A stretch of DNA of 64,000 bases from an uncultured Planctomycetia bacterium (GTDB taxonomy: Bacteria > Omnitrophota > Gorgyraeia > Pluralincolimonadales > Pluralincolimonadaceae). Both the position numbers and the translations under genes were made by a program. Position 1 is the first letter of the stretch. Every line of letters starts with the position of its first letter. Location: positions 69,541 through 133,540 of the forward strand of contig CAZYUB010000004.1 of assembly GCA_964650515.1 (NCBI GenBank), given 5' to 3'. Positions 6,368 through 40,432 of this stretch are shown piece by piece. A model generated the notes under the pieces. It was not told the DNA's origin and did not search any database. It worked only from the letters and a program-made list of their open reading frames with translations.

Positions 6368-9124
6368 ATGTTCGTTAACCTGTTCGCGAAGAACGACGAC
6401 TGGATAAAGAACAACAAGGCCTGCTTCAAGCTTCTTGATGATTTCGGCGTGGGCGTCTCCGTCATCAACCCGAAGATGGAAATAATCGCCCTGAACAAGG
6501 TCATGAAGAGGTGGTTTCCCGGGGTCGACCCGAAATCCCGGCCGATATGCCATAAATCCTTCAACTTCCCCCCCAGGAATTCAGTATGCCCGTACTGCCC
6601 GACTATGAAGACGCTTAACGACGGCAAGGTGCACGAGGCCGTCACCGAGACGCCCTACGGCGGGAAGACCATAAACTACCGCATCGTCTCGTCCCCGGTA
6701 GAGGACGATAAAGGCAATGTAGTGGCCGCTATAGAGGTCGTCGAGGACGTCACCGATAAGATGCGTGCGGAGAAACAGCTGCGGGACGCCGAGGACCTTT
6801 ACCATACCACGATCAATTCCCTCAATTACCCGATACATGTCATAGACGGGAATATGAAGATCATATTCATAAACGATACCTTCAAGTCCTGGGGCAGGAG
6901 CCTCGGGCTGAAGCCGGATCTCGTCGGCCTCGATGTCTACGCGGCGTTCCCTTTCCTGCCGGCAAAGGCGAGGGAAGAGTATAACCGCGTATTCCGCTCG
7001 GGCAGGCCCCTTACGACGGAGGAATCGGTCACCGTCGGCGGGAGGGAGATAATATCCGAGACCCAGAAGATACCTATCCTCGAGAGGGGCCGGACGGTAA
7101 AGATCATAACGATAGTCCTGGATATAACACGCATCAGGAAGAACGACAGCCTCATGGGGGATATCAGGCGCCGGCAGGAGGCGATCCTGAACAACATCCC
7201 CGATATGGCGTGGCTTAAGGACAAGGACAGCAGGTTCATCGCCGTCAATGAGCCGTTCGGCAGGGCCTGCGGGATGAGGCCTTCCGATATCGCGGGAAAG
7301 ACCGACCTGGATGTGTGGCCTAAGGAGTTGGCGGAAAAATACCGCGCGGACGACAAGGAGACCATGGTTTCGGGCAAAAGGAAAGTCGTTGAGGAGACCG
7401 TAGCCGATATAGAAAAAAAGATAAGATGGATCGAGACTATAAAGACGCCCGTATACGACGAAAAGGGCAATTGCGTCGGAACGACAGGGATTGCGAGGGA
7501 CATCACCAACAGGAGAGAGCTGGAGGAAAGGATAAAAGAGTCCGAAGAGAAGTACAGGAAGCTCTTTGAGGCGGCTAATGATGCCATCATGATAGCGGAT
7601 ATCAAGACGGGCAAACTGGTAGACGTGAACAGGCAGGCGGAGAAGCTGATGGGCACGCCCAGGCAGGACCTGGTCGGGTCGCACCAGCTTAAGCTCCATC
7701 CCCCGGAAGACGCGGATATCTACAGGGAAAAATTCGGCAATATCGTCAGGGAAGCCATAGAGAACCGCAGCGAGAAGCTGCCGTCGGTAGAGGGCGAGAT
7801 AATAAATTCCGCGGGCGAGAAGATACCCGTATATATAAATGCGTCTTTCCTCGAGCTGGGGGGCAAGGCGGTCGTCCAGGGTGTCTTCAGGGACATGTCG
7901 GAGCTCAGGAAGATAGAGCGTGAGAAGAAAGAGGCCGAGGCGCTCGCGCTGATAGACCCGCATACGCAGCTTTATAATTACAGGTATTTCCAGAGGAGGA
8001 TACATTCAGAGCTCGAGCTCGCGAAGAGGCGCTCGACCCCGCTCTCCGTCCTCATGATAGATATCGATTATTTCAAGTCGGTCAACGATACCTTCGGCCA
8101 CGAATACGGCGATGTCGTCCTGCAGGAGTTCGCTATTCTGCTGCAGCATACCTGCCGGGGCATAGATGTAGTCACGAGGTTCGAGGGGGAGGATTTCGCA
8201 GTGATCCTTCCGGATACGGACGGCCGCGGCGCGTATGCTTTCGCCGAGAGGATACAGAAGGTCATCAAGAAGCACCGGTTCGGCTCGAACAGGGTAAAGC
8301 TCAGGGTCAGTATAGGAGTCTCCGCCTATCCGGAAGACAATATAGCCACCGTCGATAACCTGCTTACGGCGGTGGAGAGATGCGTGCGCCTCGCGAAGGA
8401 CCAGGGCGGCAATACGATAACGACAGCCGCGCAGCTCCGGAAGAAGAAAATAAAAGAGGTAATGCCCGACCGCGAGTCGAAGGAGCGCGTCAGCGCGATA
8501 ACAAAGAAGTTCGTGGACCTGCTCAGGCGCAACAGGCAGAATACCATTGAGGCGGTGTACGCGCTGGCCCATACCGTGGGAGCCAAGAACGCTTATACCG
8601 AAGAGCATTCCGAGGATATGGTCAAGTACAGCACTGAGGTCGGCAGGAAGATGGGTCTCTCCGATGAGGACATTGAGGACATCAGGCACGGCGCGATGCT
8701 CCACGACATCGGGAAGCTCGGTATAAGCGAAAAGATACTTCTAAAGCGCGGCAAGCTGACGAAGAAGGAATATGATATAATAAAGAAGCACCCGCAGATA
8801 GGCGCCGATATAATCAGGCCCGTCCATTTCCTGAAGAACGTCGTGCCGATAATATTGCACCACCACGAGAGGTATGACGGCTACGGTTACGGGTCGAAAT
8901 TAAAGGGGGATGAGATACCCGTCGGCGCGAGGATAGTCGCGGTCGTAGACGTATACCAGGCGCTCGTCTCGAACAGGCCCTACCGCAAGGCGTATCCGAG
9001 GAGGGAGGCGCTGAAGATAATAAAGGACGAGTCAGGAACGCATTTTGACCCGAAGGTGGTCAAGGTCTTCCTGGAGATGCTCGCAAAAGAAAAAGAGAAG
9101 AAAATAAAGAGGAGGTCGAGATGA
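6368..9124 (+). CDS. Multi-PAS signalling protein with degenerate GGDEF domain and HD-GYP phosphodiesterase domain (c-di-GMP turnover or sensing)
   Basis: Three or four PAS-like repeats are followed by a GGDEF fold carrying RGID (RxxD I-site) and RFEGEDF in place of GG(D/E)EF. The C-terminus has HDIGK and HHHERYDGYGYG (HD-GYP-type). The stop overlaps the start of the next gene (ATGA). Confidence 0.85.
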   Translation: MFVNLFAKNDDWIKNNKACFKLLDDFGVGVSVINPKMEIIALNKVMKRWFPGVDPKSRPICHKSFNFPPRNSVCPYCPTMKTLNDGKVHEAVTETPYGGKTINYRIVSSPVEDDKGNVVAAIEVVEDVTDKMRAEKQLRDAEDLYHTTINSLNYPIHVIDGNMKIIFINDTFKSWGRSLGLKPDLVGLDVYAAFPFLPAKAREEYNRVFRSGRPLTTEESVTVGGREIISETQKIPILERGRTVKIITIVLDITRIRKNDSLMGDIRRRQEAILNNIPDMAWLKDKDSRFIAVNEPFGRACGMRPSDIAGKTDLDVWPKELAEKYRADDKETMVSGKRKVVEETVADIEKKIRWIETIKTPVYDEKGNCVGTTGIARDITNRRELEERIKESEEKYRKLFEAANDAIMIADIKTGKLVDVNRQAEKLMGTPRQDLVGSHQLKLHPPEDADIYREKFGNIVREAIENRSEKLPSVEGEIINSAGEKIPVYINASFLELGGKAVVQGVFRDMSELRKIEREKKEAEALALIDPHTQLYNYRYFQRRIHSELELAKRRSTPLSVLMIDIDYFKSVNDTFGHEYGDVVLQEFAILLQHTCRGIDVVTRFEGEDFAVILPDTDGRGAYAFAERIQKVIKKHRFGSNRVKLRVSIGVSAYPEDNIATVDNLLTAVERCVRLAKDQGGNTITTAAQLRKKKIKEVMPDRESKERVSAITKKFVDLLRRNRQNTIEAVYALAHTVGAKNAYTEEHSEDMVKYSTEVGRKMGLSDEDIEDIRHGAMLHDIGKLGISEKILLKRGKLTKKEYDIIKKHPQIGADIIRPVHFLKNVVPIILHHHERYDGYGYGSKLKGDEIPVGARIVAVVDVYQALVSNRPYRKAYPRREALKIIKDESGTHFDPKVVKVFLEMLAKEKEKKIKRRSR

Positions 9125-9675
9125 GGTATTTGTTTGGGGCGGCCGCTATCATGCTAATATTATGCGGGACGGCGTACGGCGAGGGCAATATTGTACCGAA
9201 CGCGAGCTTCGAGGAACTCAAGGGCTTCGACGGCGAGAATCCCGCGGGCTGGTGGTCATGGAACTCCGATTATAACGGGCTTACGGCATCGGCGAGCAGG
9301 ACCGGCGAACAGGCGGTGCAGATCGGCGCCGAAGCGAACAACGAGACGCATAGCGGCGTATTATACCGTTACCGCAACGTGGTCCCGGGCAAGATATACG
9401 ATTTCTCCTGTTACGTCAAGAACTCCACTACGGACCCGATAACCGGCGGCGCTTACGGCCAGTTGAGCATAGAATGGCTCAAGAACGAGAAAGAGACAGA
9501 GCGCACATGGGGCGTGACATGGGGGCCTGACATATCGGATGCCGACTGGAAGAAAGTCGAGATGAGCGCGATCGCTCCGGCAGGCGCGGATGCCTGCAAT
9601 TTCGTGATACAGTTCTTCCGCAAGGACGGCTCGGGCAGTTTCTTCGCGGATGACGTAATGGTAGAGGAAAAATAA
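9121..9675 (+). CDS. Secreted beta-sandwich (CBM4/9-like) protein, family X paralog
   Basis: Signal peptide (MRYLFGAAAIMLILCGTAYG), then NASFEEL...W.W....GL...R.G..A..I...YRY..V.PGK.Y.FSCYVKN...G.AYGQLSIEW...CNFVIQFF...FFADDV. Paralogous to 9706, 11084 and 12641. Confidence 0.6.
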   Translation: MRYLFGAAAIMLILCGTAYGEGNIVPNASFEELKGFDGENPAGWWSWNSDYNGLTASASRTGEQAVQIGAEANNETHSGVLYRYRNVVPGKIYDFSCYVKNSTTDPITGGAYGQLSIEWLKNEKETERTWGVTWGPDISDADWKKVEMSAIAPAGADACNFVIQFFRKDGSGSFFADDVMVEEK

Positions 9676-9705
9676 CGGGGATGTTGGGGAGAAAGGCGCG
9701 CTATC

Positions 9706-10932
9706 ATGCTTAGATCAGTATTGCTAATATGCCTCGCCGCAATGATGCTCCTGCCAGCCGATTACGCATATTCGGTAATGGTCGGCAAGAACCTGCTCGC
9801 GAACAACAGTTTTGAGAACCGCCCCGGGTTCAAGGACCAGGACCCGCGCGATTGGGGGAGCTGGAACAACGCCTTTAACGGGCTGTCCACTACCGAGAGG
9901 AGGAGGGGGCAGCAGTCGGTATATTTCTTATGCCCCAAACAGGGGGAGTCCACGGGCGTCTTCTATACTTATAAGAAGGTCAAACCGGGGAACAAATACA
10001 TATTCCGCTGCTATGTGATGAACTCCCGTGAGGAGCCGATATCCGGCCAGGCCTTCGGCCAGTTGAGCATAGAGTGGAGGAAGACGACGAAGGACAAGGA
10101 CAATAAGGACGTGCAGGTAGAGATAAGCAGGGATTTCGGGCAGAAGTTCGGGCAGAACCTGCCGTGCCTGAAATGGACGCTTGCGTCAATTTCGGCTATA
10201 GCCCCGCAGGACGCGGATAACTGCAATTTCGTCATCCAATTCTTCAATGACACGAACGGCAACGGGAAGTTCTTCGCGGACGACGTGTCGGCCGAAGAGA
10301 TCGACAAGAACATAGCCCTGAAGGACTACGCCCTCGGCAAGACGGGCCCTAAGAACACCCCGTCCTCTTCCGTCCCGTCCCTCGCCGCGTCCGGCTCCGG
10401 GCTCGGGCCTTCGGGCGCGCAGCTGCTTGCCGCGGATTACGATTCCGGGGACAAGCCGAACAACGTAGGCGGCGATATGGGGTGCTGGAACAAAGACCCG
10501 AACGACAAGTCGCAGGGATGCAGCATGAGCTTTACCGGCGAGGGTTCCGGCCGCGGTGGGAAAGGCCGGGTGCTCGCACTCGATTATGACGTCGATTCGC
10601 CTAATGAGGCATTTGACGGCTATTGGATGACGCTGCAGAATAAGGACGTCTCCGCCTACAATAAACTCAGCTTGTGGATAAGGGGCGACACCGAGAAGGG
10701 CTTCTCGAAATCGATAAAGATAGAGCTTAAGAACTCCGCGAAGGAGCAGTCCACATATACCCTTTCCGGCATAACGGGGGAATGGAAGAGGTTCGTTATC
10801 CCGTTAAGCGCGTTTAGCGAGTTGAAGAGCTATTCCTCAATGACGGAATTCGTCATACGCTTTGACGATAAGGTCAATGCCGACAAGAAAGAAGGAAGGA
10901 TCTACGTCGACGATATCGCGTTTACCGAATGA
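9706..10932 (+). CDS. Secreted two-domain protein: family X CBM-like domain plus family Y domain (GDKPNNVGGD...)
   Basis: Signal peptide. The N-terminal half aligns with 9121 (GQLSIEW, CNFVIQFF, FFADDV). A Ser/Gly linker follows. The C-terminal half aligns with 11814..12395 (DSGDKPNNVGGDMGCWNKDPND...VDYDVDSPN...IYVDDIAF). Confidence 0.6.
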   Translation: MLRSVLLICLAAMMLLPADYAYSVMVGKNLLANNSFENRPGFKDQDPRDWGSWNNAFNGLSTTERRRGQQSVYFLCPKQGESTGVFYTYKKVKPGNKYIFRCYVMNSREEPISGQAFGQLSIEWRKTTKDKDNKDVQVEISRDFGQKFGQNLPCLKWTLASISAIAPQDADNCNFVIQFFNDTNGNGKFFADDVSAEEIDKNIALKDYALGKTGPKNTPSSSVPSLAASGSGLGPSGAQLLAADYDSGDKPNNVGGDMGCWNKDPNDKSQGCSMSFTGEGSGRGGKGRVLALDYDVDSPNEAFDGYWMTLQNKDVSAYNKLSLWIRGDTEKGFSKSIKIELKNSAKEQSTYTLSGITGEWKRFVIPLSAFSELKSYSSMTEFVIRFDDKVNADKKEGRIYVDDIAFTE

Positions 10933-10998
10933 TGAGTTTTTTTATCCGCGCCTGCTCACGCGGGCAATTAATTCCCTAAAAATAGCAATTTAGTATTC

Positions 10999-11027
10999 TT
11001 GACAACGACCTATTCACATGGTAAATT
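10999..11027 (+). promoter_or_regulatory. Sigma70-like promoter (TTGACA, 17 nt, TAAATT) upstream of PEP-CTERM copy 1
   Basis: Consensus -35 and -10 with 17-nt spacer. Preceded by the conserved AAAATAGCAATTTAGTATTC element shared with copy 2. Confidence 0.5.
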
Positions 11028-11083
11028 TCCTGTAATGCCCTCGGGGGCAATAGGTTGTCAAAAACATGAAAGGGGGTGGGAGA

Positions 11084-11693
11084 GTGAAGAAAATTTTCTT
11101 CCTCGGGTTAGTAGTTGGGTTAGTACTTTCATTGTCTTCAGCAGCGCACGCCAACATGCTGGTGAATTCCAGCTTCGAGACACCGATGGGTGATAACGCT
11201 GATCCCGACGGTTGGTGGGGTCTTCGTGAATTCCCGACCGCGACGGACGTAGTGATGAAGACGTCGACAGCGGAGAAGTATTCCGGCGCGCAGAGCGGCA
11301 GGATCACCATGACGGCCAATACCACAACGCCCAGGAACTTGTGGGCGGGATGGGGCCAGGAAGTAAGCATCGGAGGCGGGCAGCAGATTACGGCTTCTAC
11401 GTGGCTCAAGGCCACAGCCCGTAATTACGCGAACCCCAAGCTCCAGCTTGAGTTCAAGGACATGGGCGGCGTACAGATCAACAAGACGTCTGTAGCGGCC
11501 CCGACCGGAACGTTCGACTGGACGAACCTCACGACCACGGTGACGACACCGGTAGGCACGGAGACGGTCCTCGTCAACCTTCTCGTTGAGAAGACCTCTG
11601 GCGGCGCCAGCGGTGAGTTCTACTGGGACGACGCATCGATCGATATCGCTGCCGTTCCGGAACCGGCAAGCCTGCTTTTACTCGGCTCGGGCC
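11084..11693. repeat. Direct repeat, copy A of the roughly 610-bp duplicated PEP-CTERM gene body
   Basis: Translated ORFs on both strands are identical between the copies (the antisense MALSHVEAVICCPPP... ORFs match over 130 aa), implying near-perfect nucleotide identity. Confidence 0.8.
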
Positions 11694-11728
11694 TCGTAGG
11701 CCTGCTCGGCCTGAGAAAGAGGAAGTAA
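11084..11728 (+). CDS. PEP-CTERM sorting-domain protein with CBM-like domain (copy 1)
   Basis: GTG start 7 nt after GGGGGTGGGAG. Signal peptide present. The C-terminus VPEPASLLLLGSGLVGLLGLRKRK is PEP motif, TM helix and basic tail. Confidence 0.75.
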   Translation: MKKIFFLGLVVGLVLSLSSAAHANMLVNSSFETPMGDNADPDGWWGLREFPTATDVVMKTSTAEKYSGAQSGRITMTANTTTPRNLWAGWGQEVSIGGGQQITASTWLKATARNYANPKLQLEFKDMGGVQINKTSVAAPTGTFDWTNLTTTVTTPVGTETVLVNLLVEKTSGGASGEFYWDDASIDIAAVPEPASLLLLGSGLVGLLGLRKRK

Positions 11729-11749
11729 CCAGTAAGGTAAATAGATAAC

Positions 11750-11779
11750 GGATGGCCCCTTAAGAAAAAGGGGCCATCC
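11750..11779 (+). terminator. Perfect hairpin (GGATGGCCCCT / AGGGGCCATCC) after PEP-CTERM copy 1
   Basis: 11-bp perfect stem with an 8-nt loop. There is no strong T-tract, so this may be an attenuator or processing site. Confidence 0.45.
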
Positions 11780-11813
11780 AGTTTAAGAAACCCAGGAGGG
11801 TCAAGAAAACCAG

Positions 11814-12395
11814 ATGAATAAGATAAAGGGATATTTTGCGGTACTGATCGTCGCCCTGGCCGTATCCGGGTCTTCATATGCCGCGACGCTGGTGATAGCT
11901 GATTTTGATACCGGAGACAAGCCGAACAACGTCGGCGGAGATTTCGGCGCGTGGGACAAGGACCCGAATGACACTACGCAGGGATGCAAGATCAATTTCA
12001 ACCCGGACACCAAGCACGGTGACAAAGGTTTCGCCCTCCAGGTGGATTATGATGTGGATTCCCCCAACCCCGCTTATAACGGCGTATGGATGAAGCTCAA
12101 CAGCACTGACGGGACCCAGTATGATAAGGTCACGTTCTGGATAAAGGGCGACGAGGTCGCCGGCTTCTCCCCGAAGATGAAGCTTGAGATAAAGAACGAC
12201 AAGGGAGAGGTAGGGAAGTACGTAGTGTCGAATATAACGAAGGACTGGCAGGAGGTCTCCATACCGCTGAGCTCTTTCGGCGGGCTGACGGACAAGAGCT
12301 CGCTGTCCGAGTTCGTTATCGTATTTGACGATATGACCTGTGCCGCAAAGAAACAGGGCACCGTTTACATCGATGATATCGCATTCGTGAAATAG
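11814..12395 (+). CDS. Secreted family Y beta-sandwich protein (GDKPNNVGGD family)
   Basis: Signal peptide (MNKIKGYFAVLIVALAVSGSSYA), then ATLVIADFDTGDKPNNVGGDFGAWDKDPND...VDYDVDSPN...VYIDDIAF. RBS is CAGGAGGG. Confidence 0.6.
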   Translation: MNKIKGYFAVLIVALAVSGSSYAATLVIADFDTGDKPNNVGGDFGAWDKDPNDTTQGCKINFNPDTKHGDKGFALQVDYDVDSPNPAYNGVWMKLNSTDGTQYDKVTFWIKGDEVAGFSPKMKLEIKNDKGEVGKYVVSNITKDWQEVSIPLSSFGGLTDKSSLSEFVIVFDDMTCAAKKQGTVYIDDIAFVK

Positions 12396-12405
12396 GTCAT
12401 TAAGA

Positions 12406-12434
12406 CCCCGCGGGTACTATAAGTGCCCGCGGGG
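12406..12434 (+). terminator. Hairpin (CCCCGCGGG / CCCGCGGGG) after gene 11814..12395
   Basis: 9-bp GC stem immediately downstream of the stop codon. Confidence 0.4.
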
Positions 12435-12469
12435 GCAATATAGTCCACAAAAATAGCAAATTTGTAGTC

Positions 12470-12498
12470 TTGACAAAAGCAGTAATCAGTGATAAACT
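12470..12498 (+). promoter_or_regulatory. Sigma70-like promoter (TTGACA, 17 nt, TAAACT) upstream of PEP-CTERM copy 2
   Basis: Same architecture and the same upstream AAAATAGCAAATTTGTAGTC element as copy 1. The leader to the GTG start is about 140 nt. Confidence 0.5.
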
Positions 12499-12640
12499 TT
12501 AGAAAGCTCAAAGACATCCTTGTTAATACAACCGTGGCATATTTTTTTTGATAAAAGATGCCCACGAGGGCAGAGGCAGTAAAAGGACATTCGAGGTTTC
12601 GGGGAGATAAGCAAAATCAATGACGGAAGGAGGTGAACAA

Positions 12641-13250
12641 GTGAAGAAAATTTTCTTCCTCGGGTTAGTAGTTGGGTTAGTACTTTCATTGTCTTCAGCA
12701 GCGCACGCCAACATGCTGGTGAATTCCAGCTTCGAGACACCGATGGGTGATAACGCTGATCCCGACGGTTGGTGGGGTCTTCGTGAATTCCCGACCGCGA
12801 CGGACGTAGTGATGAAGACGTCGACAGCGGAGAAGTATTCCGGCGCGCAGAGCGGCAGGATCACCATGACGGCCAATACCACAACGCCCAGGAACTTGTG
12901 GGCGGGATGGGGCCAGGAAGTAAGCATCGGAGGCGGGCAGCAGATTACGGCTTCTACGTGGCTCAAGGCCACAGCCCGTAATTACGCGAACCCCAAGCTC
13001 CAGCTTGAGTTCAAGGACATGGGCGGCGTACAGATCAACAAGACGTCTGTAGCGGCCCCGACCGGAACGTTCGACTGGACGAACCTCACGACCACGGTGA
13101 CGACACCGGTAGGCACGGAGACGGTCCTCGTCAACCTTCTCGTTGAGAAGACCTCTGGCGGCGCCAGCGGTGAGTTCTACTGGGACGACGCATCGATCGA
13201 TATCGCTGCCGTTCCGGAACCGGCAAGCCTGCTTTTACTCGGCTCGGGTT
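12641..13250. repeat. Direct repeat, copy B of the roughly 610-bp duplicated PEP-CTERM gene body
   Basis: See copy A. Identity ends just before the C-terminal tail codons. Confidence 0.8.
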
Positions 13251-13288
13251 TAGTTGGTTTGTTTGGTGTTTCAAGAAGGAAGAAGTAA
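12641..13288 (+). CDS. PEP-CTERM sorting-domain protein with CBM-like domain (copy 2, identical mature sequence)
   Basis: GTG start after GGAAGGAGGTG. The protein is identical to copy 1 through LLLLGSGLVGL, then the tail diverges (FGVSRRKK). Confidence 0.75.
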   Translation: MKKIFFLGLVVGLVLSLSSAAHANMLVNSSFETPMGDNADPDGWWGLREFPTATDVVMKTSTAEKYSGAQSGRITMTANTTTPRNLWAGWGQEVSIGGGQQITASTWLKATARNYANPKLQLEFKDMGGVQINKTSVAAPTGTFDWTNLTTTVTTPVGTETVLVNLLVEKTSGGASGEFYWDDASIDIAAVPEPASLLLLGSGLVGLFGVSRRKK

Positions 13289-13405
13289 ATAGTTTGACAG
13301 TTTGCAGGATTGGCTCCGCAAAAGTCTCATCCCCCAAAAATAAGATAGATGCGGGGCCAATCCTGTAAGCAGGGCTATCCGGGACCCTGAAAGGGCGCAA
13401 AGTTA

Positions 13406-13434
13406 TTGCGCTCATGGGCAAAAAGTCATATAAT
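13406..13434 (+). promoter_or_regulatory. Sigma70-like promoter (TTGCGC, 17 nt, TATAAT) for the discoidin-GH gene
   Basis: Consensus -10 TATAAT with 17-nt spacer. It is preceded by a long inverted repeat at about 13300..13362 (CAGGATTGGC...GCCAATCCTG). Confidence 0.5.
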
Positions 13435-13463
13435 AAACGCAAATATCCCGGAGGCCACAGGTT

Positions 13464-16400
13464 ATGGAAAAGAATTTCAGGTCAGCGATAGCCTTATTAT
13501 CCCGCCTTTTCATCATTGCCGCATTTACGGTCAATTTCGCGCAGGCAGATGCCCTGCAGGTTACCGCGTCGTCAAGCGAGAGCAACCTTTACGGGCCTGC
13601 TAACGCCATGGACGGCAATTACCAGAGCAGGTGGAGCAGCGTTTTTTCCGACCCGCAATGGCTTCTTATAGACCTCGGTGAAAAGAAGGACGTCGCGGGC
13701 ATTTCTATAAGATGGGAGGCCGCCTTCGGGAAATCCTATGAGGTGCAGTTGTCCGACGATAAATCCGCCTGGAGGACGGTCTTCACGGCCTCCGAGAGCG
13801 ACGGCGGCACCGATGAGATATATTTCAGGAAGGCCCCCGCAAGATATATAAGGATATTCATGAAGGAGCGCGGCACTTTCTGGGGTTATTCGATACTCGA
13901 ACTGTCCGTGAAGGGCGCGGATGAAGAGCCGGCCGTTACCGGTTCCTCGACCCAGCAGGGCAGCGACCCCTTCAACGCTTTTGACGGGGACCGCTCGACC
14001 GAATGGCTCAACGATTCATGCTCGGACGCGTGGATATCGGTAGACCTAAGGAAGCCGAAGGATATAGGCGGCGTGCAGCTGAACTGGGGGCTGAATTACG
14101 CGAAATCATACGATATATTCACTTCGGACGACGGGAACTCCTGGAGGAAGGCCTATTCCACAGAAAAAGGCAACGGGAGCAAGGACCTGATATATCTCGA
14201 CGCAACGAGGGCCCGGCATATAAAGATATCATGCAGGGAGAGCAATACCGGTTGCGGTTATTCGATAAAGGATATCTCGCTCAAAGGCCCCGACGAGTCC
14301 GCGACGCCGCAGAGGCATTATGAGCTGCTGGCGGAAGAGTCGCCCGCGGGCTATTACCCGAAATGGCTTTCTAAACAGCAGGCATACTGGACGGTCGCCG
14401 GGATAGACGGGGACGACAAGGAGAGCCTGTTGTGCGAGGACGGCACGATAGAGCCCTATTGGCAGAGTTTCTCCCTGATGCCATATCTTTATACCGGCAC
14501 GGGGGGCTTTATTACTTCGGGCAACTCCAAGGTCACCCAGTCGATGGAGAAAGGGTACCTGCCCATTCCGTCGGTCGAGTGGGAGCGGGACGGGATAATA
14601 TTCACGCAGCGGCTGTTCGCCTCGGGTGAACGCGGAAAATCCGCGTCATACGCGTGGTATACGATAGAGAACACCGCGAAGGAGGAAGTCGCCGGGAAAT
14701 TCTTCCTTACGGTAAGGCCTTTCCAGGTGAACCCGCCGTGGCAATACGGGGGGCTCTCCGAGATAAGGAGCATTTCCTGCGAGGACGCGGATATGCCCGC
14801 CGTAAAGGTCAACGGCCTGCCGGCCGTCATATCGATGTCGAAGCCCGACGCCTTCGGCGCGGTAAGGTATAAGCAGGACGATATCGTGAACATCATAGAA
14901 TCCGGCAAGGTCCCGGCGGAGAGGTCCGTTAATGACCCCGACAAGTTCGCTTCGGGCGCGCTTGAGTTCGCTTTCGACCTGAAGCCGGGCAGGAAGGCGG
15001 ATTACTATTTCGCTATACCGTTGCATGGCTGCGACAGCGTGCAGGGCCTGCCGAAGAAACCGGGCAATGCCGCAGGCCATTTCGCGAAACTCCTTAAAGA
15101 CCAGAAGAAATACTGGGAGGCGAAGCTCGATGCCGTGCAGATAGACGTGCCGGACCGGGAGATCGTGGACGCGATGAAGGCGAACCTCGGTTATATCCTG
15201 ATAAACAAGGACCTGCTGAAACTTCAGCCCGGCTCGCGCAATTACAAGAAGGCCTGGATGCGCGACGGCGCGCTGATATCGGCCGCAATGCTGAGGATGG
15301 GCTATAACAACGACGTAAAGGAATTCCTGGACTGGATAGCGAAGAGGCAGTACCCGAACGGGATGGTGCCTTTCATGCTGGAAGAGGGCGGCATGCCGGG
15401 CTGGGCCAAGGACTGGAAGGAATATGACAGCCAGGGCGAGTTCATATTCGCGATATACGACTATTATTGCTTTACCGGAGACAGGGAGTTCCTCGAGCAG
15501 AAGTGGCCTAATATAGAGAAGGCGCTTAAGTTCCTGGTGGAGCTCAGGAAGCAGAGGCTCACCGACCAGTACTGCAAGGGCCCCGACTCGAAGAGAGTGT
15601 TCTGCGGCATCCTGCCGGAGTCGAACAGCCACGAAGGGTATTTCCCGGCTATGCACAGCTACTGGGACGATTTCTGGGCGCTGAAAGGATGGGAGGACGC
15701 GGGTTCCATCGCGAAAATACTCGGCAAGGAGGACGCGGCCAAATGGATAGACGCCGAGAAGGCATCGTTCAGGAAGTCGGTATACGACTCGATAAGCCTT
15801 GTGATGAAGGTGCATAAGATAGATTTCATACCGGGCTGCGCGGACAAAGGCGATTTCGACGCGACGTCGACGGCGCAGGGCATCTACCCCTGCGGCGAGG
15901 GCAGGTACATGCCGCAGCCCCAGCTGAATAACACGTTCGAAAGGTACCTTAAGGATTCGCTGAGGCCCAGGTACAAGGACGATTGGAAAGGCGGATTCAC
16001 CCCTTACGAGATACGCTCGATATCCGCGCTGATAATGATGGGCGAAAGGGAGAAGGCCTTCGAGATGCTGGAATATTTCCAGACCGTAAAACGCCCGCGC
16101 GCATGGAACCACTGGGCGGAGGTCGTGTTCAGCGGATACCGCCATCCGCAGTACCTCGGGGATATGCCCCATACGTGGATAGGCGCGGAATATATATGCG
16201 CCGTAAGGAATATGTTCGTATACGAGGACGGCGGCAAGCTCGTTCTCGGCGCCGGCATACCGAAGGAATGGGCCGACTCCGGCAAGGCGATAAAGGCGGA
16301 GAGGATGCCGACATACTTCGGAGATATAAGCTATACGCTGAGGCCTTGCTCGAAAGGGCTGAAGCTTGAGGTCCGGGGGAAGGCGAGGCCTCCGGAAGGG

Positions 16401-16490
16401 TTCCTGTTCAGGGACCCGGGGACAGGGAAAGAGTTTACATTTAACAAGTTGCCTGCTAATATAATAATATCAGGCAAAGGGGACGAATGA
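13464..16490 (+). CDS. Secreted glycoside hydrolase: two N-terminal F5/8 type C (discoidin) domains plus (alpha/alpha)6-barrel GH domain (GH15/GH63/GH100-like clan)
   Basis: Signal peptide. Two repeats carry the discoidin signature (NAMDGNYQSRWSS...WLLIDLG...YEVQLSDD and NAFDGDRSTEWLND...WISVDLR...YDIFTSDDG). The downstream W.RDGALIS motif region is typical of six-hairpin glycosidases. Confidence 0.7.
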   Translation: MEKNFRSAIALLSRLFIIAAFTVNFAQADALQVTASSSESNLYGPANAMDGNYQSRWSSVFSDPQWLLIDLGEKKDVAGISIRWEAAFGKSYEVQLSDDKSAWRTVFTASESDGGTDEIYFRKAPARYIRIFMKERGTFWGYSILELSVKGADEEPAVTGSSTQQGSDPFNAFDGDRSTEWLNDSCSDAWISVDLRKPKDIGGVQLNWGLNYAKSYDIFTSDDGNSWRKAYSTEKGNGSKDLIYLDATRARHIKISCRESNTGCGYSIKDISLKGPDESATPQRHYELLAEESPAGYYPKWLSKQQAYWTVAGIDGDDKESLLCEDGTIEPYWQSFSLMPYLYTGTGGFITSGNSKVTQSMEKGYLPIPSVEWERDGIIFTQRLFASGERGKSASYAWYTIENTAKEEVAGKFFLTVRPFQVNPPWQYGGLSEIRSISCEDADMPAVKVNGLPAVISMSKPDAFGAVRYKQDDIVNIIESGKVPAERSVNDPDKFASGALEFAFDLKPGRKADYYFAIPLHGCDSVQGLPKKPGNAAGHFAKLLKDQKKYWEAKLDAVQIDVPDREIVDAMKANLGYILINKDLLKLQPGSRNYKKAWMRDGALISAAMLRMGYNNDVKEFLDWIAKRQYPNGMVPFMLEEGGMPGWAKDWKEYDSQGEFIFAIYDYYCFTGDREFLEQKWPNIEKALKFLVELRKQRLTDQYCKGPDSKRVFCGILPESNSHEGYFPAMHSYWDDFWALKGWEDAGSIAKILGKEDAAKWIDAEKASFRKSVYDSISLVMKVHKIDFIPGCADKGDFDATSTAQGIYPCGEGRYMPQPQLNNTFERYLKDSLRPRYKDDWKGGFTPYEIRSISALIMMGEREKAFEMLEYFQTVKRPRAWNHWAEVVFSGYRHPQYLGDMPHTWIGAEYICAVRNMFVYEDGGKLVLGAGIPKEWADSGKAIKAERMPTYFGDISYTLRPCSKGLKLEVRGKARPPEGFLFRDPGTGKEFTFNKLPANIIISGKGDE

Positions 16491-17485
16491 GCGCAAAGAC
16501 ACTCGAAGAACTGGCGGAAAAACTTAAGGTATCGCGCAGGACCATCTCGCGCGCACTGAAGAACGACGTGAACGTCGCGAGCGAGACGCGCCGCCGCATA
16601 CTCGATTACCTGGAGAAGGACAAATATTTCCCGAATGTCCATGCCGCGAGCCTGGCGTCCAAGAAGATAAACGTCATCGGGCTTATTTTCCCCAAGAACG
16701 CCTTCCTGCACGCCGACTTCTTCGCTATAGACACGATAAAAGGCGCGGCCAAGTTCGCGAACGAGAATAATTACCAGCTGATGATGTTCACGCAGAACAA
16801 GTTCGACAGCGACCAGTGCCTTCAGATGTATAAGAGCAAGCTCGTCGGCGGGCTCATGATAGTCGCGATATCCAAGGACGATACGGAAAAGATAGAAGAG
16901 CTCAGGAAGAACCATGTCCCGGTCGCGCTGCTCTTCGCCTATTCGGACGCGGTGGATTCCTTCGGTTGCGACAACAAGCGCGGCGGATACATAGCGACGA
17001 AGCACCTGATAGATACAGGGAAGAAAAGGATCGCTTTCATACACGGCCACGAGAACTGGTTCGATTCCGCGGAAAGGTTCGAAGGGTACAAGAAGGCGCT
17101 TGAGGATGCCGGCATGCCGTTCAGGCAGGAGTATGTCGAGCGCGGCTACTTCAGGTATGAGGATGCCCAGGAAGCGACGAAGAAGCTGATGGCGCTCGAT
17201 AACCCGCCCGATGGCATATTTTCAGCGAACGACAGGATGGCCATAGGCGTCATCAGGGCCCTTAAGGTGGCGGGAAAGAAGGTGCCCGAGGACGTCGCCG
17301 TGATAGGATTCGACAATATACCCATTTGCGATTTCTTCGACCCGCCCATAACTACCGTCGCGCAGCCGGTAATGGAGATCGCCTATACCGCCGGCAACGA
17401 CCTGCTGGATTCCATCAATTCCCCGCACAAGAAACCGCGCCTGCGCCACCTGGAACCGAGCCTCGTAATACGCAAATCCGCCTGA
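16487..17485 (+). CDS. LacI-family transcriptional regulator
   Basis: N-terminal HTH (LEELAEKLKVSRRTISRALKND.NVASETRRRI) and a periplasmic-binding-protein-like sugar-binding fold. ATGA overlap with the upstream GH gene. Confidence 0.85.
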   Translation: MSAKTLEELAEKLKVSRRTISRALKNDVNVASETRRRILDYLEKDKYFPNVHAASLASKKINVIGLIFPKNAFLHADFFAIDTIKGAAKFANENNYQLMMFTQNKFDSDQCLQMYKSKLVGGLMIVAISKDDTEKIEELRKNHVPVALLFAYSDAVDSFGCDNKRGGYIATKHLIDTGKKRIAFIHGHENWFDSAERFEGYKKALEDAGMPFRQEYVERGYFRYEDAQEATKKLMALDNPPDGIFSANDRMAIGVIRALKVAGKKVPEDVAVIGFDNIPICDFFDPPITTVAQPVMEIAYTAGNDLLDSINSPHKKPRLRHLEPSLVIRKSA

Positions 17486-17493
17486 TTGCCGTA

Positions 17494-17522
17494 TTGCGCC
17501 TGCCCTTTATTCGTGCTATAAT
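17494..17522 (+). promoter_or_regulatory. Sigma70-like promoter (TTGCGC, 17 nt, TATAAT) upstream of DUF116-shc
   Basis: Consensus match in the 46-nt intergenic region. Confidence 0.45.
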
Positions 17523-17531
17523 CATCAGCCT

Positions 17532-18320
17532 ATGAAAGAGACCGGCAAGGGAAAGAGGATCGAGGACAGGTTATTAGGGGACGAATGGGCAGATTGGAAG
17601 CCCGGCACAGGAGCCGAGGGCTCATCCGAAGCCCCGAAATCCCTTTTTCTGGTGTTTTCTCTCCTTGTTTTATCCCTGTTATTGCTTGGCATCTGGCTGT
17701 TCTGGTACCTTGCTTTCCCGAGGTTTGAGAGCTTCGGGCCGGGGTTCGTGCCGGCTGCCGGGGCGGTATTCGTCGCGCTCGGGTGCGCGCTGGCGGTGTG
17801 GTATGCCTCGCAGGCCCTGTCGGCGGCGTTCAAGGCAAAGCTGACGCCCTCTTTTGTTGCCAGCAGGCTATCGCTGAGGGTGCTTTTGCCCGGAGCCGTC
17901 AGGATAGCGTCGTTGTTCGGCATAACAAGGGACAGGATAGGGAGCTCGTTCATAAAGTTCCACAACGACCTCATGTATGCGACGGGGACCGGAAGGTCCG
18001 TCAAGAAGATATTGATACTGCTGCCGAGATGCCTCTCGGCGGAAATAAGGAACAAGATCAAGGAACTCGGGGAAAGGTACGAGTTCACCGCATATACCGC
18101 TTTCGGCGGCGATGAGGCGCGGAAGGCCATAAAGGATAACCGCCCGGATGCCGTCATCGGGATCGCGTGCGAAAGGGACCTCATCTCGGGGATACAGGAT
18201 ACGGCCCCGAAGATGCCGGTCTTCGGCCTTGCCAATAAGCGCCCGGAAGGCCCTTGCAAGAACACCTCCATAGATATGGGCGAGTTGGAAAGGATCGTCA
18301 GGTACTGCCTCACTAAATAA
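17532..18320 (+). CDS. DUF116-family membrane-associated protein
   Basis: N-terminal TM helices, then the conserved LLPRCLSAE...IACERDLISG core that I recognise as DUF116. Confidence 0.55.
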   Translation: MKETGKGKRIEDRLLGDEWADWKPGTGAEGSSEAPKSLFLVFSLLVLSLLLLGIWLFWYLAFPRFESFGPGFVPAAGAVFVALGCALAVWYASQALSAAFKAKLTPSFVASRLSLRVLLPGAVRIASLFGITRDRIGSSFIKFHNDLMYATGTGRSVKKILILLPRCLSAEIRNKIKELGERYEFTAYTAFGGDEARKAIKDNRPDAVIGIACERDLISGIQDTAPKMPVFGLANKRPEGPCKNTSIDMGELERIVRYCLTK

Positions 18321-18321
18321 T

Positions 18322-32753: not shown

Positions 32754-35024
32754 ATGGCGAGCAATGGGACGATCGTGGGGCTTGTGTGTTCGTTTGTTCT
32801 GGTTCTGACGGGCAATTTCAGTTTCGCGCAGGAGGCGGCGGCAGTGGCTAACCTAATGGTACCGAACGCGATGCAGGGGACATGGGAGAATAAGGGTACC
32901 GCAAAGCACAGCTATATATCCGACGGCGCGCGCACGGAAGGCGTGAAGTCGGTCCAGGTAAAATATAACGTGAGCGGGGCCAGGCAGGAATCCGGTTTCT
33001 GGTTCGGCCTGATAGGCAAGGACCTCAGCAAGTACGGGGAGGTCAGCTTCTGGGTGAAAGGCGAGAAGGGCGGCGAGGCCTTCAAGGTAGGCATAAAGGA
33101 CAGCTCCCATTTCGAGGACAAGATAGACATAAAGGACTTGATACCCGGAGGCGTGACTACGCAGTGGCAGAAGGTCACGATCCCGCTGTCGGATTTCAAA
33201 TCGATAAAGAACTGGTTCAGCATGGATAACTTCTCGGTCACGTTCCGCAACGACTACGGCCAGCCGTTCACGGGCACGATATACCTCGACGGGCTTGCCC
33301 TCAGCGGCGAGAGGACGGGTGTGGAGCGCCAGCCGGTGATCAAATGGCCCGCGCCGGAGCTTTCGACGATGACGGACGAGCAGTTCCTCGACCTCATCGA
33401 GCATTCAGCATGCATGTTCTTCTGGGATGAGGCGAATCCCGAGAACGGGCTTATAAAGGATAATTGCTCGGCCTTCATGGCCGACGCCGCGCCGATGGCG
33501 AGCATCGCGTCGGTAGGTTTCGGCCTCCCGGCGTTATGCGTCGCAGTAGACCGCGGCTGGCTGCCGAAGGACAAGGTAGAGGAGAGGATAATAACGACGC
33601 TGAAGTTCTTCAGGGACAAGGCCGAATGCGTCCACGGCTTCTACTACCATTTCCTCGACATGAGGAGCGGCGACCGCTGGGGCGATTGCGAGCTTTCATC
33701 GATAGATACGGCCCTGCTCATGGCGGGCGTTCTGTATGCGGGAGAGTATTTCAAGGGCACCGAGATAGAAAAGCTCGCGAAAGAGCTTTACGACAGGGTC
33801 GATTGGGCATGGATGATGGACAACGGCACGACGCCGAGCATGGGCTGGTTCCCGGATAAGGGGTTCCTCCCTTACAGGTGGTCGGGTTATACGTCGGAGC
33901 ACCTTGTGCTCTATTTTATGGGCATAGGGTCTACGACGCATCCGATGTCGCCGGACTCGTGGAACGCGTTCAGCCGCGGGATGAACACATATAAGGAATA
34001 CAGGTTCAGCGGGCCTCCGGCGCTCTTCACGCACCAGTATTCGCATTGCTATGTCGACTTCAAGGGCAAGGAAGACAGGTTCATGGATTACCAGGAGAAT
34101 TCCGTCCAGGCGACCCTGGCTAACAGGCAGTGGTGCATCGATAACATGACGCGCAGCAAGACGTACGGCCCGGACTGCTGGGGATTGACCGCGTGCGACG
34201 GGCCCGACGGCTACAAGGCGTACGGCGCGCCTAACGGAGAGAACGACGGCACGGTCTCGCCGACCGCCGCGATATCATCGATAGTATTTACGCCGGACCT
34301 GTCGATAAAGGCCGCGAAGTTCATGTATTCGAATTACAAGGACAAGATATGGGGCAAGTACGGTTTTGTCGACGCTTTTAACTGGGACAGGAACTGGGTC
34401 TCGGGAAGGTATATCGGAATAGACCAGGGCCCTATCGTCCTTATGATAGAGAACTACAGGACCGGCAAGGTATGGAAGACGTTCATGGAGAACGCTAACA
34501 TCAAGGCGGCGATGAAGCTTTGTAATTTCACGAAGCCCAAGAAGGTCATAGACACGGTGAATCTTTCGGGCAAGTGGTACCTGAGGACCGGCGATGACTT
34601 CAAATGGTCGAAGCTTAAGTCGGTCGACAAGGAATGGAAGCAGGTAAATGTGCCCGGCGGGTGGGAAGCCCAGGGTTTCGATAATTATGACGGCTATGCC
34701 TGGTACTGGTACGGCTTCAAGATACCGAAAGAGAAGAAGGCCCTCTGGAGTGAGAAGGGTGCCAGGATACTGCTGAGGTTCGGTGGCATTGACGATTGCG
34801 ATATGACCTTCTTCAATAAGAACCTCGTCGGGCAGAGCGGCCTCTTCCCGCCGAAACACCAGTCCGTCTGGGAAAAACAGAGAGAGTACGTTATCCCCCT
34901 GAAGACGGTAAACTTCAAATCGGAGAACTTCATAGCGGTCAGGGTCTATGATTCCGGCAGGGTCGGCGGCATATATAAAGGCCCGGTCGAGATAAAAGTC
35001 ATCAAGGAAGAAGCGCTCGAATAG
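32754..35024 (+). CDS. Secreted multi-domain glycoside hydrolase: family Y CBM-like domain, (alpha/alpha)6 barrel (tentatively DUF3131/GH144-like beta-1,2-glucanase family), and a GH2-type sugar-binding beta-sandwich
   Basis: Signal peptide. The N-terminal domain is alignable to 11814 (FKVGIKD...IPLSDF...IYLDGLAL). The central HSACMFFWDE...SIASVGFGLPALCVAVDRGW region looks like a six-hairpin GH. The C-terminal WKQVNVPGGWE...GYAWYWYGF resembles a GH2 N-terminal domain. Confidence 0.6.
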   Translation: MASNGTIVGLVCSFVLVLTGNFSFAQEAAAVANLMVPNAMQGTWENKGTAKHSYISDGARTEGVKSVQVKYNVSGARQESGFWFGLIGKDLSKYGEVSFWVKGEKGGEAFKVGIKDSSHFEDKIDIKDLIPGGVTTQWQKVTIPLSDFKSIKNWFSMDNFSVTFRNDYGQPFTGTIYLDGLALSGERTGVERQPVIKWPAPELSTMTDEQFLDLIEHSACMFFWDEANPENGLIKDNCSAFMADAAPMASIASVGFGLPALCVAVDRGWLPKDKVEERIITTLKFFRDKAECVHGFYYHFLDMRSGDRWGDCELSSIDTALLMAGVLYAGEYFKGTEIEKLAKELYDRVDWAWMMDNGTTPSMGWFPDKGFLPYRWSGYTSEHLVLYFMGIGSTTHPMSPDSWNAFSRGMNTYKEYRFSGPPALFTHQYSHCYVDFKGKEDRFMDYQENSVQATLANRQWCIDNMTRSKTYGPDCWGLTACDGPDGYKAYGAPNGENDGTVSPTAAISSIVFTPDLSIKAAKFMYSNYKDKIWGKYGFVDAFNWDRNWVSGRYIGIDQGPIVLMIENYRTGKVWKTFMENANIKAAMKLCNFTKPKKVIDTVNLSGKWYLRTGDDFKWSKLKSVDKEWKQVNVPGGWEAQGFDNYDGYAWYWYGFKIPKEKKALWSEKGARILLRFGGIDDCDMTFFNKNLVGQSGLFPPKHQSVWEKQREYVIPLKTVNFKSENFIAVRVYDSGRVGGIYKGPVEIKVIKEEALE

Positions 35025-38530: not shown

Positions 38531-38596
38531 AACGCCGTTATTATAGCATAACCCGCCGGCATTGACATATCCCCGATGCGCTGTTAGAATCGGCAT

Positions 38597-39771: not shown

Positions 39772-40432
39772 GGGACGGTTCTTGAGCCAATCGGGGAAGT
39801 GTCCCCGCAGGGCCTCCCTGAAGGGCCGCCTTATAGGAAATTCGGTAAATCCAGAAGCCCATTTTCAGTGCCAACAATTCTCTCTTTATAACTACTCCAC
39901 GGGTAATGCAGGGGATTATTGACTATTTTTGCCCTGACAGGATTGGCCTCTATGTAGTTAATGCAGCCGATAAGATATTCATCTTTCTGGATAACCATGC
40001 TCTTGAAGCGGTCTTGCCAAAGATGGCCGACTTTGCCATATTTTGCATTAAACCATATGGAATATGACAGGCTGATACCATGTGCTGTCTTTGACAGTTC
40101 AGAAGGTTCTTTAGGGTCTATGATCATGTGGATGTGGTTGCTCATAAGGCAGTAACCATAGAGTTTAAAACGGTATTTGTTTTTATACTTCTTAAGCAAT
40201 TGCAAGTATTTTTCATGATCATGCACATCGAAGAAAACATCTTGTTTTTGGTTTCCTCTTGCTATAATATGATAACAAGAGTTGTCTAAAATGATTCTAG
40301 CGACTCTGGGCATTTTATTACTCCTTTGTGTAGTAGACGCTGGAAGGTGGAATATTCTTTCATAAATTTATTGGGATGGCAAAGGGGACGTCCCCTGGGG
40401 GACAGTTCCCCGATTGGCTTAAGAACCGTCCC
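39772..40432. mobile_element. IS200/IS605-like or REP-RAYT unit: HUH Y1 transposase gene flanked by about 35-bp imperfect inverted repeats
   Basis: Left end is GGGACGGTTCTTGAGCCAATCGGGGAAGTGTCCCC. Right end is GGGGACAGTTCCCCGATTGGCTTAAGAACCGTCCC, the reverse complement with 3 mismatches. Each end contains a GGGGA-n4-TCCCC hairpin. The interior is markedly AT-richer than the flanks. Confidence 0.75.
39831..40313 (-). CDS. HUH-type Y1 transposase (IS200-like / REP-associated tyrosine transposase)
   Basis: SNHIHMII carries the HuH motif, followed by a Y-containing C-terminal helix (HYPWSSYK). Length is 160 aa. RAYT-family consensus (CYHIIARGN...LYGYCLM). Confidence 0.8.
   Translation of the reverse strand: MPRVARIILDNSCYHIIARGNQKQDVFFDVHDHEKYLQLLKKYKNKYRFKLYGYCLMSNHIHMIIDPKEPSELSKTAHGISLSYSIWFNAKYGKVGHLWQDRFKSMVIQKDEYLIGCINYIEANPVRAKIVNNPLHYPWSSYKERIVGTENGLLDLPNFL

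Follow-up and report, generated by a model that had tools for sequence, protein, structure and literature searches.

This analysis concerns an array of five genes in a 64-kb stretch of DNA from a Candidatus Omnitrophota bacterium; the whole of that stretch, at its full length, is what we call the window. According to the listing of its open reading frames (ORFs), positions 9121-13288 of the window hold exactly five consecutive ORFs on the plus strand, here named g1 to g5, the first of which overlaps the end of a signalling gene, g0 (Table 1). The five proteins consist only of a signal peptide and one or two beta-jelly-rolls, with sorting tails on g3 and g5, and the jelly-rolls fall into two families, X in the CBM_4_9 superfamily of carbohydrate-binding modules (CBMs) and Y in the CBM11/CBM30 group. 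We consider it about as likely as not that the array represents a set of Sec-exported proteins of carbohydrate-binding-module type, non-catalytic and specific to this lineage, and the observations that bear on this are set out below.

By sequence reading, all five proteins begin with a signal peptide in which a basic n-region leads into a hydrophobic core and then a cleavage site of AxA-like form; the predicted sites are, from g1 to g5 in order, AYG/E, AYS/V, AHA/N, SYA/A and AHA/N. The signal peptide that precedes the domain of the PEP-CTERM proteins reads MKGGGRVKKIFFLGLVVGLVLSLSSAAHA/NM, and an N-terminal helix also appears in the AlphaFold2 model of g3. No anchor was found in g1, g2 or g4, and the window copies of family Y carry no lipobox. 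A preliminary description of this DNA had proposed a paralogous array of secreted signal-peptide proteins built from two recurring beta-sandwich domains, a proposal borne out by the ORFs, the alignments and the structure models. Its coordinates and families for the five genes also stand; what it overlooked is the near-identity of g3 and g5 and the recognition of both domains by Pfam.

Table 1. The g0-g5 locus, its regulatory elements and related genes of the window
Feature	Position	Strand	Description
g0	6368-9124	+	Four PAS domains, GGDEF, HD-GYP-type domain (Pfam, NCBIfam)
Ribosome-binding site AGGAGG; ATGA stop/start overlap of g0/g1	9110-9115; 9121-9124	+	Direct sequence reading
g1	9121-9675	+	184 amino acids (aa); signal peptide and one CBM_4_9-type beta-jelly-roll (family X); without anchor
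g2	9706-10932	+	408 aa; signal peptide, CBM_4_9-type domain ~29-198, low-complexity linker ~200-237, CBM11-type domain ~238-408
Promoter-like element upstream of g3	10982-11027	+	ATAGCAA...CTTGACA, 17 nucleotides (nt), TGgTAAATT (TGGTAAATT); sigma70-like
g3	11066-11728	+	220 aa; signal peptide, divergent CBM_4_9-like jelly-roll, PEP-CTERM sorting tail VPEPASLLLLGSGLVGLLGLRKRK
Stem-loop just after g3	11749-11780		13 bp, GC-rich, -28.7 kcal/mol, z -5.7
g4	11814-12395	+	193 aa; signal peptide and one CBM11-type domain (family Y); without anchor
Stem-loop after g4	12406-12434		13 bp, -28.2 kcal/mol, z -5.7
Second promoter-like copy, upstream of g5	12453-12498	+	ATAGCAA...CTTGACA-17-TGGTAAATT
g5	12620-13288	+	222 aa; PEP-CTERM CBM_4_9-like protein
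Long stem-loop after g5	13300-13370		-41.9 kcal/mol, z -6.3
Neighbouring hydrolase-like gene	13464-16490	+	1008 aa; two CBM32-like discoidin domains and an uncharacterised (alpha/alpha)6 glycoside-hydrolase-like region
LacI-family regulator	16487-17485	+	Start overlaps the stop of the hydrolase gene
Distant family Y/CBM30-like domain	32754-33300	+	N-terminus of a GH144-like (PF10091) enzyme; Pfam CBM30 41.6 bits (vs 27), CBM_11 24.9 bits

Two families of carbohydrate-binding-module fold

Family X comprises g1, the N-terminal half of g2, g3 and g5. The g1 domain shares 46% identity with the N-terminal half of g2 and only ~20% with g3/g5 (BLASTP E 0.004); the grouping of g3/g5 with the other two is nonetheless real, because the profile of the g1/g2N family (A7) matches that of the g3 family (A3) with a probability of 98.9% and an E value of 1e-17 in hhalign. 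The Pfam model CBM_4_9 (PF02018, gathering cut-off 25.9 bits) recognises g1 at 35.0 bits and g2 at 28.6 bits, both over the cut-off; g3 and g5 taken singly reach just 16 bits and remain under it, and 18 of the 73 members of the g3 family match the model at E<=0.01, the best at 3.7e-9. When compared with the PDB, the g3 family profile retrieved CBM16 (E 9e-9), CBM22 (5e-7) and CBM4 (1e-5). The AlphaFold2 model of g3, with a predicted local distance difference test score (pLDDT) of 89, matched CBM16 (2zey, 3oea), CBM22 (4xup) and CBM4-2 in Foldseek at probability 1.0, with template modelling (TM) scores to target of 0.70-0.78, and it also resembles CBM61 and the CBM-like receptor-binding domains of phage tailspikes. 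The most conserved residues of the family lie in an N-terminal N-x-x-F-E motif and a C-terminal D-D motif, which in this fold clasp both ends of the sandwich, often via structural Ca2+, and are not part of the ligand cleft.

Family Y, which bears no relation to family X at the profile level, comprises g4 together with the C-terminal half of g2, which are 48% identical (E 2e-60). The preliminary description had placed a further copy at the head of the large glycoside hydrolase at 32754, and a Y-like, distant domain is indeed present there, with 29% identity to g4 over 123 aa (BLASTP E 5e-13). Pfam CBM_11 (PF03425, gathering cut-off 27 bits) recognises g4 at 34.7 bits and falls just short with the C-terminal domain of g2 at 24.8 bits, and all 25 members of the family match the model at E<=0.01, the best at 4.7e-10. 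The AlphaFold2 model of g2 consists of two beta-sandwiches (pLDDT 80-97) joined by a disordered linker, and with its C-terminal domain Foldseek retrieved the CBM11 structures 1v0a, 6r3m and 6r31 (TM to target 0.72, root-mean-square deviation 2.9-3.3 A). By sequence the match of family Y to CtCBM11 is marginal (E ~7e-4 with the profile). Of the beta-glucan-binding residues of CtCBM11, which we take to be Tyr22, Tyr53, Tyr129, Asp99, Arg126 and Asp128, two are matched by conserved family Y positions in the profile alignment, Tyr53 by Y88 and Asp128 by D160; the N-terminal part of CtCBM11, Tyr22 included, lies outside it. Peculiar to family Y is a very strongly conserved motif, ADFDSGxKPNNVGGxFGxWNKDPxDxTQxC. 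Homologues of family Y elsewhere are mostly lipoproteins, in which an L-x-G-C lipobox is followed by an acidic, proline-rich linker of ~70 aa and then by the domain.

Both families had been presented as unannotated in the preliminary description. This no longer holds for family X, in which PF02018 recognises g1 and g2 and which structure prediction groups with CBM16, CBM22 and CBM4, nor for family Y, given the PF03425 matches and the fold match to CtCBM11. Structure prediction followed by Foldseek comparison with CBM families, which had been proposed as a check, did return known families; their assigned specificities are not transferable. Key ligand residues of both CtCBM11 and CBM16-1 lack conserved counterparts here, and we dropped for this reason the idea of carrying a ligand over from either of them.

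PEP-CTERM tails and a variable gene spot

The PEP-CTERM anchors that had been noted in two of the five proteins proved canonical, with g3 and g5 scoring 30.5 and 29.7 bits for PF07589 (cut-off 20.7) and 25.9 and 25.4 bits for TIGR02595 (cut-off 16), both being curated models of Pfam and NCBIfam, respectively. The tail is present in 71 of the 73 members of the g3 family. For NF033554, the model of the floc protein PepA, scores of 39.5 and 42.5 bits were obtained over model positions 151-261 only (~110 aa), and the equivalog cut-off of 80 was not reached.

The preliminary description had named the absence of any exosortase from the genome as a finding that would refute its reading. None lies within the 64-kb window, but an exosortase and EpsI accompany the orthologous array in a related metagenome-assembled genome, UBA6215, so that relatives with the same locus do possess both. 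Contig L010 of UBA6215 carries the array in the order g0, g1, g2, g4, PEP-CTERM gene, glycoside hydrolase gene and LacI gene. Its contig L025 encodes an exosortase, first seen as a candidate in a hydrophobicity screen and identified with NCBIfam (TIGR02602, 154.6 bits against a cut-off of 105.55), that is closest to XrtA; EpsI (88.9 bits against a cut-off of 42.8) comes after it and is itself succeeded immediately by a pair of PEP-CTERM jelly-roll genes, and upstream lies an stp1-like glycosyltransferase of the PEP-CTERM/XrtA system. A total of 758 exosortase homologues was found, many of them named as Omnitrophota. The exosortase region of L025 belongs to a second conserved Omnitrophota locus (L025 2405-10654; L024 353-2877) comprising genes for the stp1-like glycosyltransferase, a WecA-like protein, an AraC protein, a tetratricopeptide repeat protein, exosortase and EpsI, then two to three tandem PEP-CTERM jelly-roll genes and thrS; in L024 there are three such tandem genes, in the same position ahead of thrS.

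All named homologues of the array proteins belong to Candidatus Omnitrophota, and among species-representative genomes Omnitrophota bin Go_SlDig_bin_77 (L006) comes closest. Full-length relatives of g3 beyond the phylum are few (Auribacterota, 36%; one Planctomycetia, 27%). A genome scan for the g3 family was discounted in this respect, since its pattern was the PEP-CTERM motif itself and most of the 27 non-Omnitrophota loci therefore share the tail only.

A block running from DeoC through g0, g1, g2, g4, a PEP-CTERM gene, the hydrolase gene and the LacI gene to DUF116 and squalene-hopene cyclase is kept in four related lineages, with g1, g4 and the hydrolase gene as its optional members. L001 lacks all three and keeps g2, the PEP-CTERM gene and LacI, and L003, L004 and L010 have a single PEP-CTERM gene, placed after g4. 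Because gene content differs in this way among L001, L003, L004 and L010, the stretch from g0 to LacI varies within surroundings that are otherwise constant. Set against L001 and L003/L010, g3 of the window is an extra copy and g5 is the positional orthologue of the single PEP-CTERM gene. The PEP-CTERM protein shares 43% identity between the window and UBA6215, compared with 68-89% for the flanking proteins, a divergence that suggests surface exposure.

At the DNA level, codons 7-208 of g3 and g5 (606 nt; 11084-11689 and 12641-13246) are 100% identical, and both gene ends and the leaders have diverged, with many synonymous changes. This pattern marks the 606-nt identity as a gene conversion tract between older paralogues, which were already present in L006. 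An assembly artefact was ruled out as the source of the repeat: the duplication is real because the contig of L006 (~91% DNA identity) starts inside the end of a g3-like gene and continues with g4, g5 and the hydrolase gene.

Linkage to g0, transcription units and neighbouring genes

The A-site of the GGDEF domain of g0, in the region of residues 604-618, is degenerate, reading RFEGEDF in the window, RFEGEGF in L001 and L003 and RFQGEDF in L005, and the I-site RxxD is intact (RGID) in the four orthologues. The HD_5 domain (PF13487) scores 133.5 bits; HDIGK and HHHERYDGYGYG are kept in the four orthologues, and the GYP motif reads GYG, its final P having changed to G. A degenerate GGDEF domain predicts no cyclase activity, and such a domain would bind nucleotide and regulate. 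Because the A-site is degenerate in all four orthologues, g0 is predicted to lack cyclase activity and, as judged from these motifs, is probably a phosphodiesterase of cyclic di-GMP (c-di-GMP) only.

The start/stop overlap with the PAS-GGDEF-HD-GYP gene, reported earlier, is present: g0 ends in ...AGG AGG TCG AGA TGA, with the ATG of g1 nested within this end and AGGAGG six bases upstream. The overlap is kept in L003, L004 and L010, whereas L005 and L001 have ~26 nt between the genes instead, and in all four lineages g1 or g2 trails g0 by an overlap or by <=30 nt. The spacing of g1 and g2 is 30 nt. The promoter-like element found upstream of g3 and g5 also precedes the PEP-CTERM orthologues in L001, L002, L005 and L006, and in L024 it stands ahead of a PEP-CTERM paralogue; the stem-loop just after g3 is likely a terminator or transcript boundary. 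The likely transcription units are g0-g1-g2, g3 (perhaps with g4), g5, and hydrolase-LacI. The preliminary description had placed the whole array under a c-di-GMP module. That claim survives in part, in the tight linkage of g1 and g2 to g0; the degenerate GGDEF domain, the separate promoters of g3 and g5 and the stem-loops between g3, g4 and g5 speak against the remainder, and the link probably amounts only to co-production of g1 and g2 with a c-di-GMP phosphodiesterase.

A riboswitch, for c-di-GMP or otherwise, was rejected for the long 5' leaders that precede g3 and g5: nowhere in the window did an Rfam model reach its gathering score, and over 9000-13600 at E<=5 there was only noise. A sigma54 promoter such as that of pepA was rejected, since matches to TGGCAC-N5-TTGC occur at chance frequency and none lies upstream of the array. 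Similarly, the inverted repeat GCGCAA-N5-TTGCGC (13395-13411) upstream of the hydrolase gene was rejected as a LacI operator, being kept only in the near-identical L006 and not in L003/L010. The 5' leaders of the PEP-CTERM genes share a small conserved stem-loop, TGCCCnCGnGGGCA, often positioned after a T-run and without an Rfam match (window 11035-11056 and 12558-12574; L001, L003, L005, L006).

In L008, a separate lineage, the stretch 9989-18385 holds a PEP-CTERM jelly-roll homologue immediately ahead of genes for a REC-GAF-GAF-GGDEF cyclase, whose RYGGDEF motif is intact, a secretin, a GNVR chain-length determinant, a kinase-like ATPase and a Wzx-like flippase. This is an independent association of a distant homologue with c-di-GMP signalling and exopolysaccharide export, and it supports the c-di-GMP link proposed for the array.

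The hydrolase-like gene that follows g5 adjoins the array also in L003/L010. Its discoidin domains resemble the chitosan-binding DD1/DD2 of a Paenibacillus glucanase/chitosanase (E 3e-23), and for its catalytic region of ~730 aa no Pfam model scored over its cut-off. Searches with this region retrieved 3022 cluster representatives at E<1e-3 (717 at E<1e-30), and its PDB matches, to GH94 phosphorylases, MmpH and GH15-like enzymes, were all weak. The region appears to represent a large glycoside-hydrolase-like (alpha/alpha)6 family that is as yet uncharacterised. We dropped the deduction of an array ligand from this neighbour, given the weak PDB matches and the lack of a Pfam family over cut-off. 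Further along the window, at 32754-37226, the GH144-like enzyme with the distant Y domain, whose family PF10091 is that of the endo-beta-1,2-glucanases, is directly followed by a GH116-like enzyme, with a major facilitator superfamily transporter gene on the opposite strand (37223-38596). A split decarboxylase dependent on thiamine pyrophosphate (157 + 183 aa), like sulfopyruvate or phosphonopyruvate decarboxylases, is encoded inside the hopanoid gene cluster (21241-25661) together with a class V aminotransferase, then a nucleotidyltransferase, a CDP-alcohol phosphatidyltransferase and an LPG_synthase_TM protein, and these genes may form a pathway to an unusual lipid head group. An IS200-like Y1 transposase gene occupies 39831-40313 on the minus strand, and over 60001-64000 the G+C content drops from ~0.56 to 0.47-0.50 across genes for a GT2 glycosyltransferase (60842-62383) and an HlyD-like protein (62385-63341).

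Proposed role, alternatives and related systems

We propose that g3 and g5 would be exported, cut at the PEP-CTERM tail by exosortase and then kept at the surface of the cell or within its exopolysaccharide layer, where the jelly-roll would bind glycan and so join polymer and cell, as with the small PEP-CTERM floc protein PepA. The unanchored g1, g2 and g4 would act as soluble periplasmic or released glycan binders, g2 being bivalent through its X and Y domains. Production of g1 and g2 together with an HD-GYP-type c-di-GMP phosphodiesterase would tie their synthesis to a switch in surface or matrix state, and g3 and g5 would be driven by their own conserved promoter. In NCBI each named homologue already bears the title 'carbohydrate binding domain-containing protein' or 'PEP-CTERM sorting domain-containing protein', a further point against the term unannotated; the glycan-binding or matrix role that the preliminary description suggested is plausible given the CBM families, the fold and the exosortase and exopolysaccharide genes that accompany the paralogues. 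A far more ambitious version, which we find rather doubtful, would make the PEP-CTERM jelly-rolls the principal exosortase cargo of Omnitrophota, forming with the soluble X, Y and X-Y proteins a phylum-specific, c-di-GMP-coupled surface lectin system that evolves fast through duplication and gene conversion and decides what these ultra-small cells stick to, be it their own matrix, a floc or a host envelope, via a site unlike those of characterised CBMs, for example KPNNVGGxFGxWNKDPxDxTQxC.

Several observations weigh against a matrix or surface role for the array as a set of glycan binders. Carbohydrate binding is predicted from fold and family only. Tyr129 and Arg126 of CtCBM11 are replaced in family Y, the CBM16-1 ligand positions Gln121 and Trp125 have no conserved equivalents in the profile alignment of the g3 family, and phage fibres and Stig cyclases share the CBM-like fold among the Foldseek matches of g3. 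The genes of the 64-kb window include neither an exosortase gene nor exopolysaccharide genes. The adjacency to g0 is confined to one fairly narrow clade in which the whole neighbourhood is syntenic, and it may reflect descent and not function; g3 and g5 have promoter-like elements of their own and no sigma54 site as in pepA. Finally, the adjoining glycoside hydrolase and LacI regulator favour nutrient glycan capture instead.

Nutrient glycan capture is the main rival, and we regard it as possible though short of probable. Under this explanation, binders held at the surface by PEP-CTERM tails or free in the periplasm (g1, g2, g4) would act in the manner of glycan-binding surface proteins from Bacteroidota polysaccharide utilisation loci and pass environmental polysaccharide to the discoidin-(alpha/alpha)6 hydrolase, with LacI responding to sugar. 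The hydrolase gene and the LacI gene that overlaps it stand directly after the array and do so again in L003/L010, but L001 retains g2, the PEP-CTERM gene and LacI without the hydrolase, and the Pfam and PDB searches yielded no substrate for the hydrolase family. The fusion of a Y-like domain to the GH144-like enzyme, beside GH116, is consistent with capture, as are the Y homologues elsewhere, most of which are lipoproteins with a long linker like SusE/F-type binders, with weak SGBP_B_XBD matches in 6 of 25. However, the locus holds no SusC/D-like or other glycan transporter, the neighbouring genes giving no match to a TonB-dependent transporter or SusD. The PEP-CTERM paralogues, moreover, cluster with exosortase, EpsI and exopolysaccharide genes and not with hydrolases, and in the window the PEP-CTERM genes are set apart from the hydrolase by strong stem-loops and by promoters of their own.

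It is unlikely that the jelly-rolls are not lectins at all and instead serve as surface-coat subunits, protein-protein interaction modules or enzymes that share only their fold with CBMs. Such a role would accommodate the position of the conserved N-x-x-F-E and D-D motifs at the sandwich ends, outside the ligand cleft, together with the missing ligand residues of characterised CBMs and the CBM-fold Stig cyclases among the Foldseek matches. Yet the sequence-level matches are specifically to CBM families, the genomic neighbours are glycan-active genes, and the strongly conserved surface motif of family Y, KPNNVGGxFGxWNKDPxDxTQxC, suggests a conserved binding site.

Least likely is adhesion to a partner or host cell, many Omnitrophota being ultra-small and thought host-dependent, by fast-evolving tethered lectin-like proteins that bind the envelope glycans of another cell: the rapid divergence of the PEP-CTERM protein, the copy-number change and gene conversion in its family, a fold like that of receptor-binding domains of phage tailspikes and fibres, and the proposed use of adhesion domains, including discoidin, in host contact by Omnitrophota (PMC10066038) would fit, but the adhesins of that survey are giant ORFs and not small proteins like the array members, and the window encodes a fairly complete free-living-type metabolism (hopanoids, glycine cleavage, tricarboxylic acid cycle enzymes).

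Omnitrophota are uncultured and poorly understood. Our literature search returned nothing relevant on PEP-CTERM or exosortase in this phylum, and the main Omnitrophota survey treats only giant adhesin-like ORFs (PMC10066038). The CBM folds, PEP-CTERM sorting and the neighbouring c-di-GMP enzyme are all of known types, so the gain is incremental; what is new is only the description of the family set in Omnitrophota and of its genomic behaviour. If the proposed surface or matrix role is correct, the array genes name likely surface or matrix glycan binders of one lineage, would provide expressible single-domain proteins of 150-170 aa with high-confidence models suited to glycan arrays, and would help to explain how cells attach within digester flocs or to partners.

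Among known systems, the array resembles the surface glycan-binding lipoproteins SusE/SusF of polysaccharide utilisation loci in Bacteroidota, which are non-catalytic tandem beta-sandwich binders encoded near a glycoside hydrolase and a regulator, and the likeness extends to most Omnitrophota Y homologues, which are lipoproteins with a linker. The array differs from SusE/SusF in the lack of a SusC/SusD pair and of a lipobox in the window copies, and anchoring, where present, is by PEP-CTERM. With the CBM_4_9 modules (CBM4, CBM16, CBM22; PF02018), family X shares the beta-jelly-roll fold, the N-x-x-F-E...D-D end motifs and sequence-level matches; unlike those modules it stands by itself behind a signal peptide, in some proteins followed by a PEP-CTERM tail, and is not appended to a glycoside hydrolase, and unlike CBM16-1 it does not conserve Gln121 and Trp125 as ligand residues. 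Family Y is closest to CtCBM11 of Lic26A-Cel5E from Clostridium thermocellum (1v0a, 6r3m) and to CBM30, with a fold match, a g4 score over the PF03425 cut-off and retained equivalents of Tyr53 and Asp128. It differs from CtCBM11 in lacking the Tyr129/Arg126 equivalents, in having an N-terminal motif of its own that is not aligned to CtCBM11, and in occurring by itself, in lipoproteins or fused to an X domain.

For the anchored proteins the nearest parallel is PepA of Zoogloea/Aquincola together with the XrtA/EpsH-EpsI system. Like PepA, g3 and g5 are small, with a signal peptide, a C-terminal PEP-CTERM tail and partial similarity to the PepA model, and their Omnitrophota paralogues adjoin exosortase, EpsI and exopolysaccharide genes. 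They come from another phylum, their score is half the PepA cut-off, so that they are not orthologues, and their globular part has a recognisable CBM fold; their promoter is conserved and sigma70-like, where pepA has a sigma54 promoter of which no counterpart was found upstream of the array. The role we propose for g3 and g5, holding exopolysaccharide to the cell, is modelled on PepA, the overexpression of which lowers soluble exopolysaccharide and raises bound polymer (PMC9850573).

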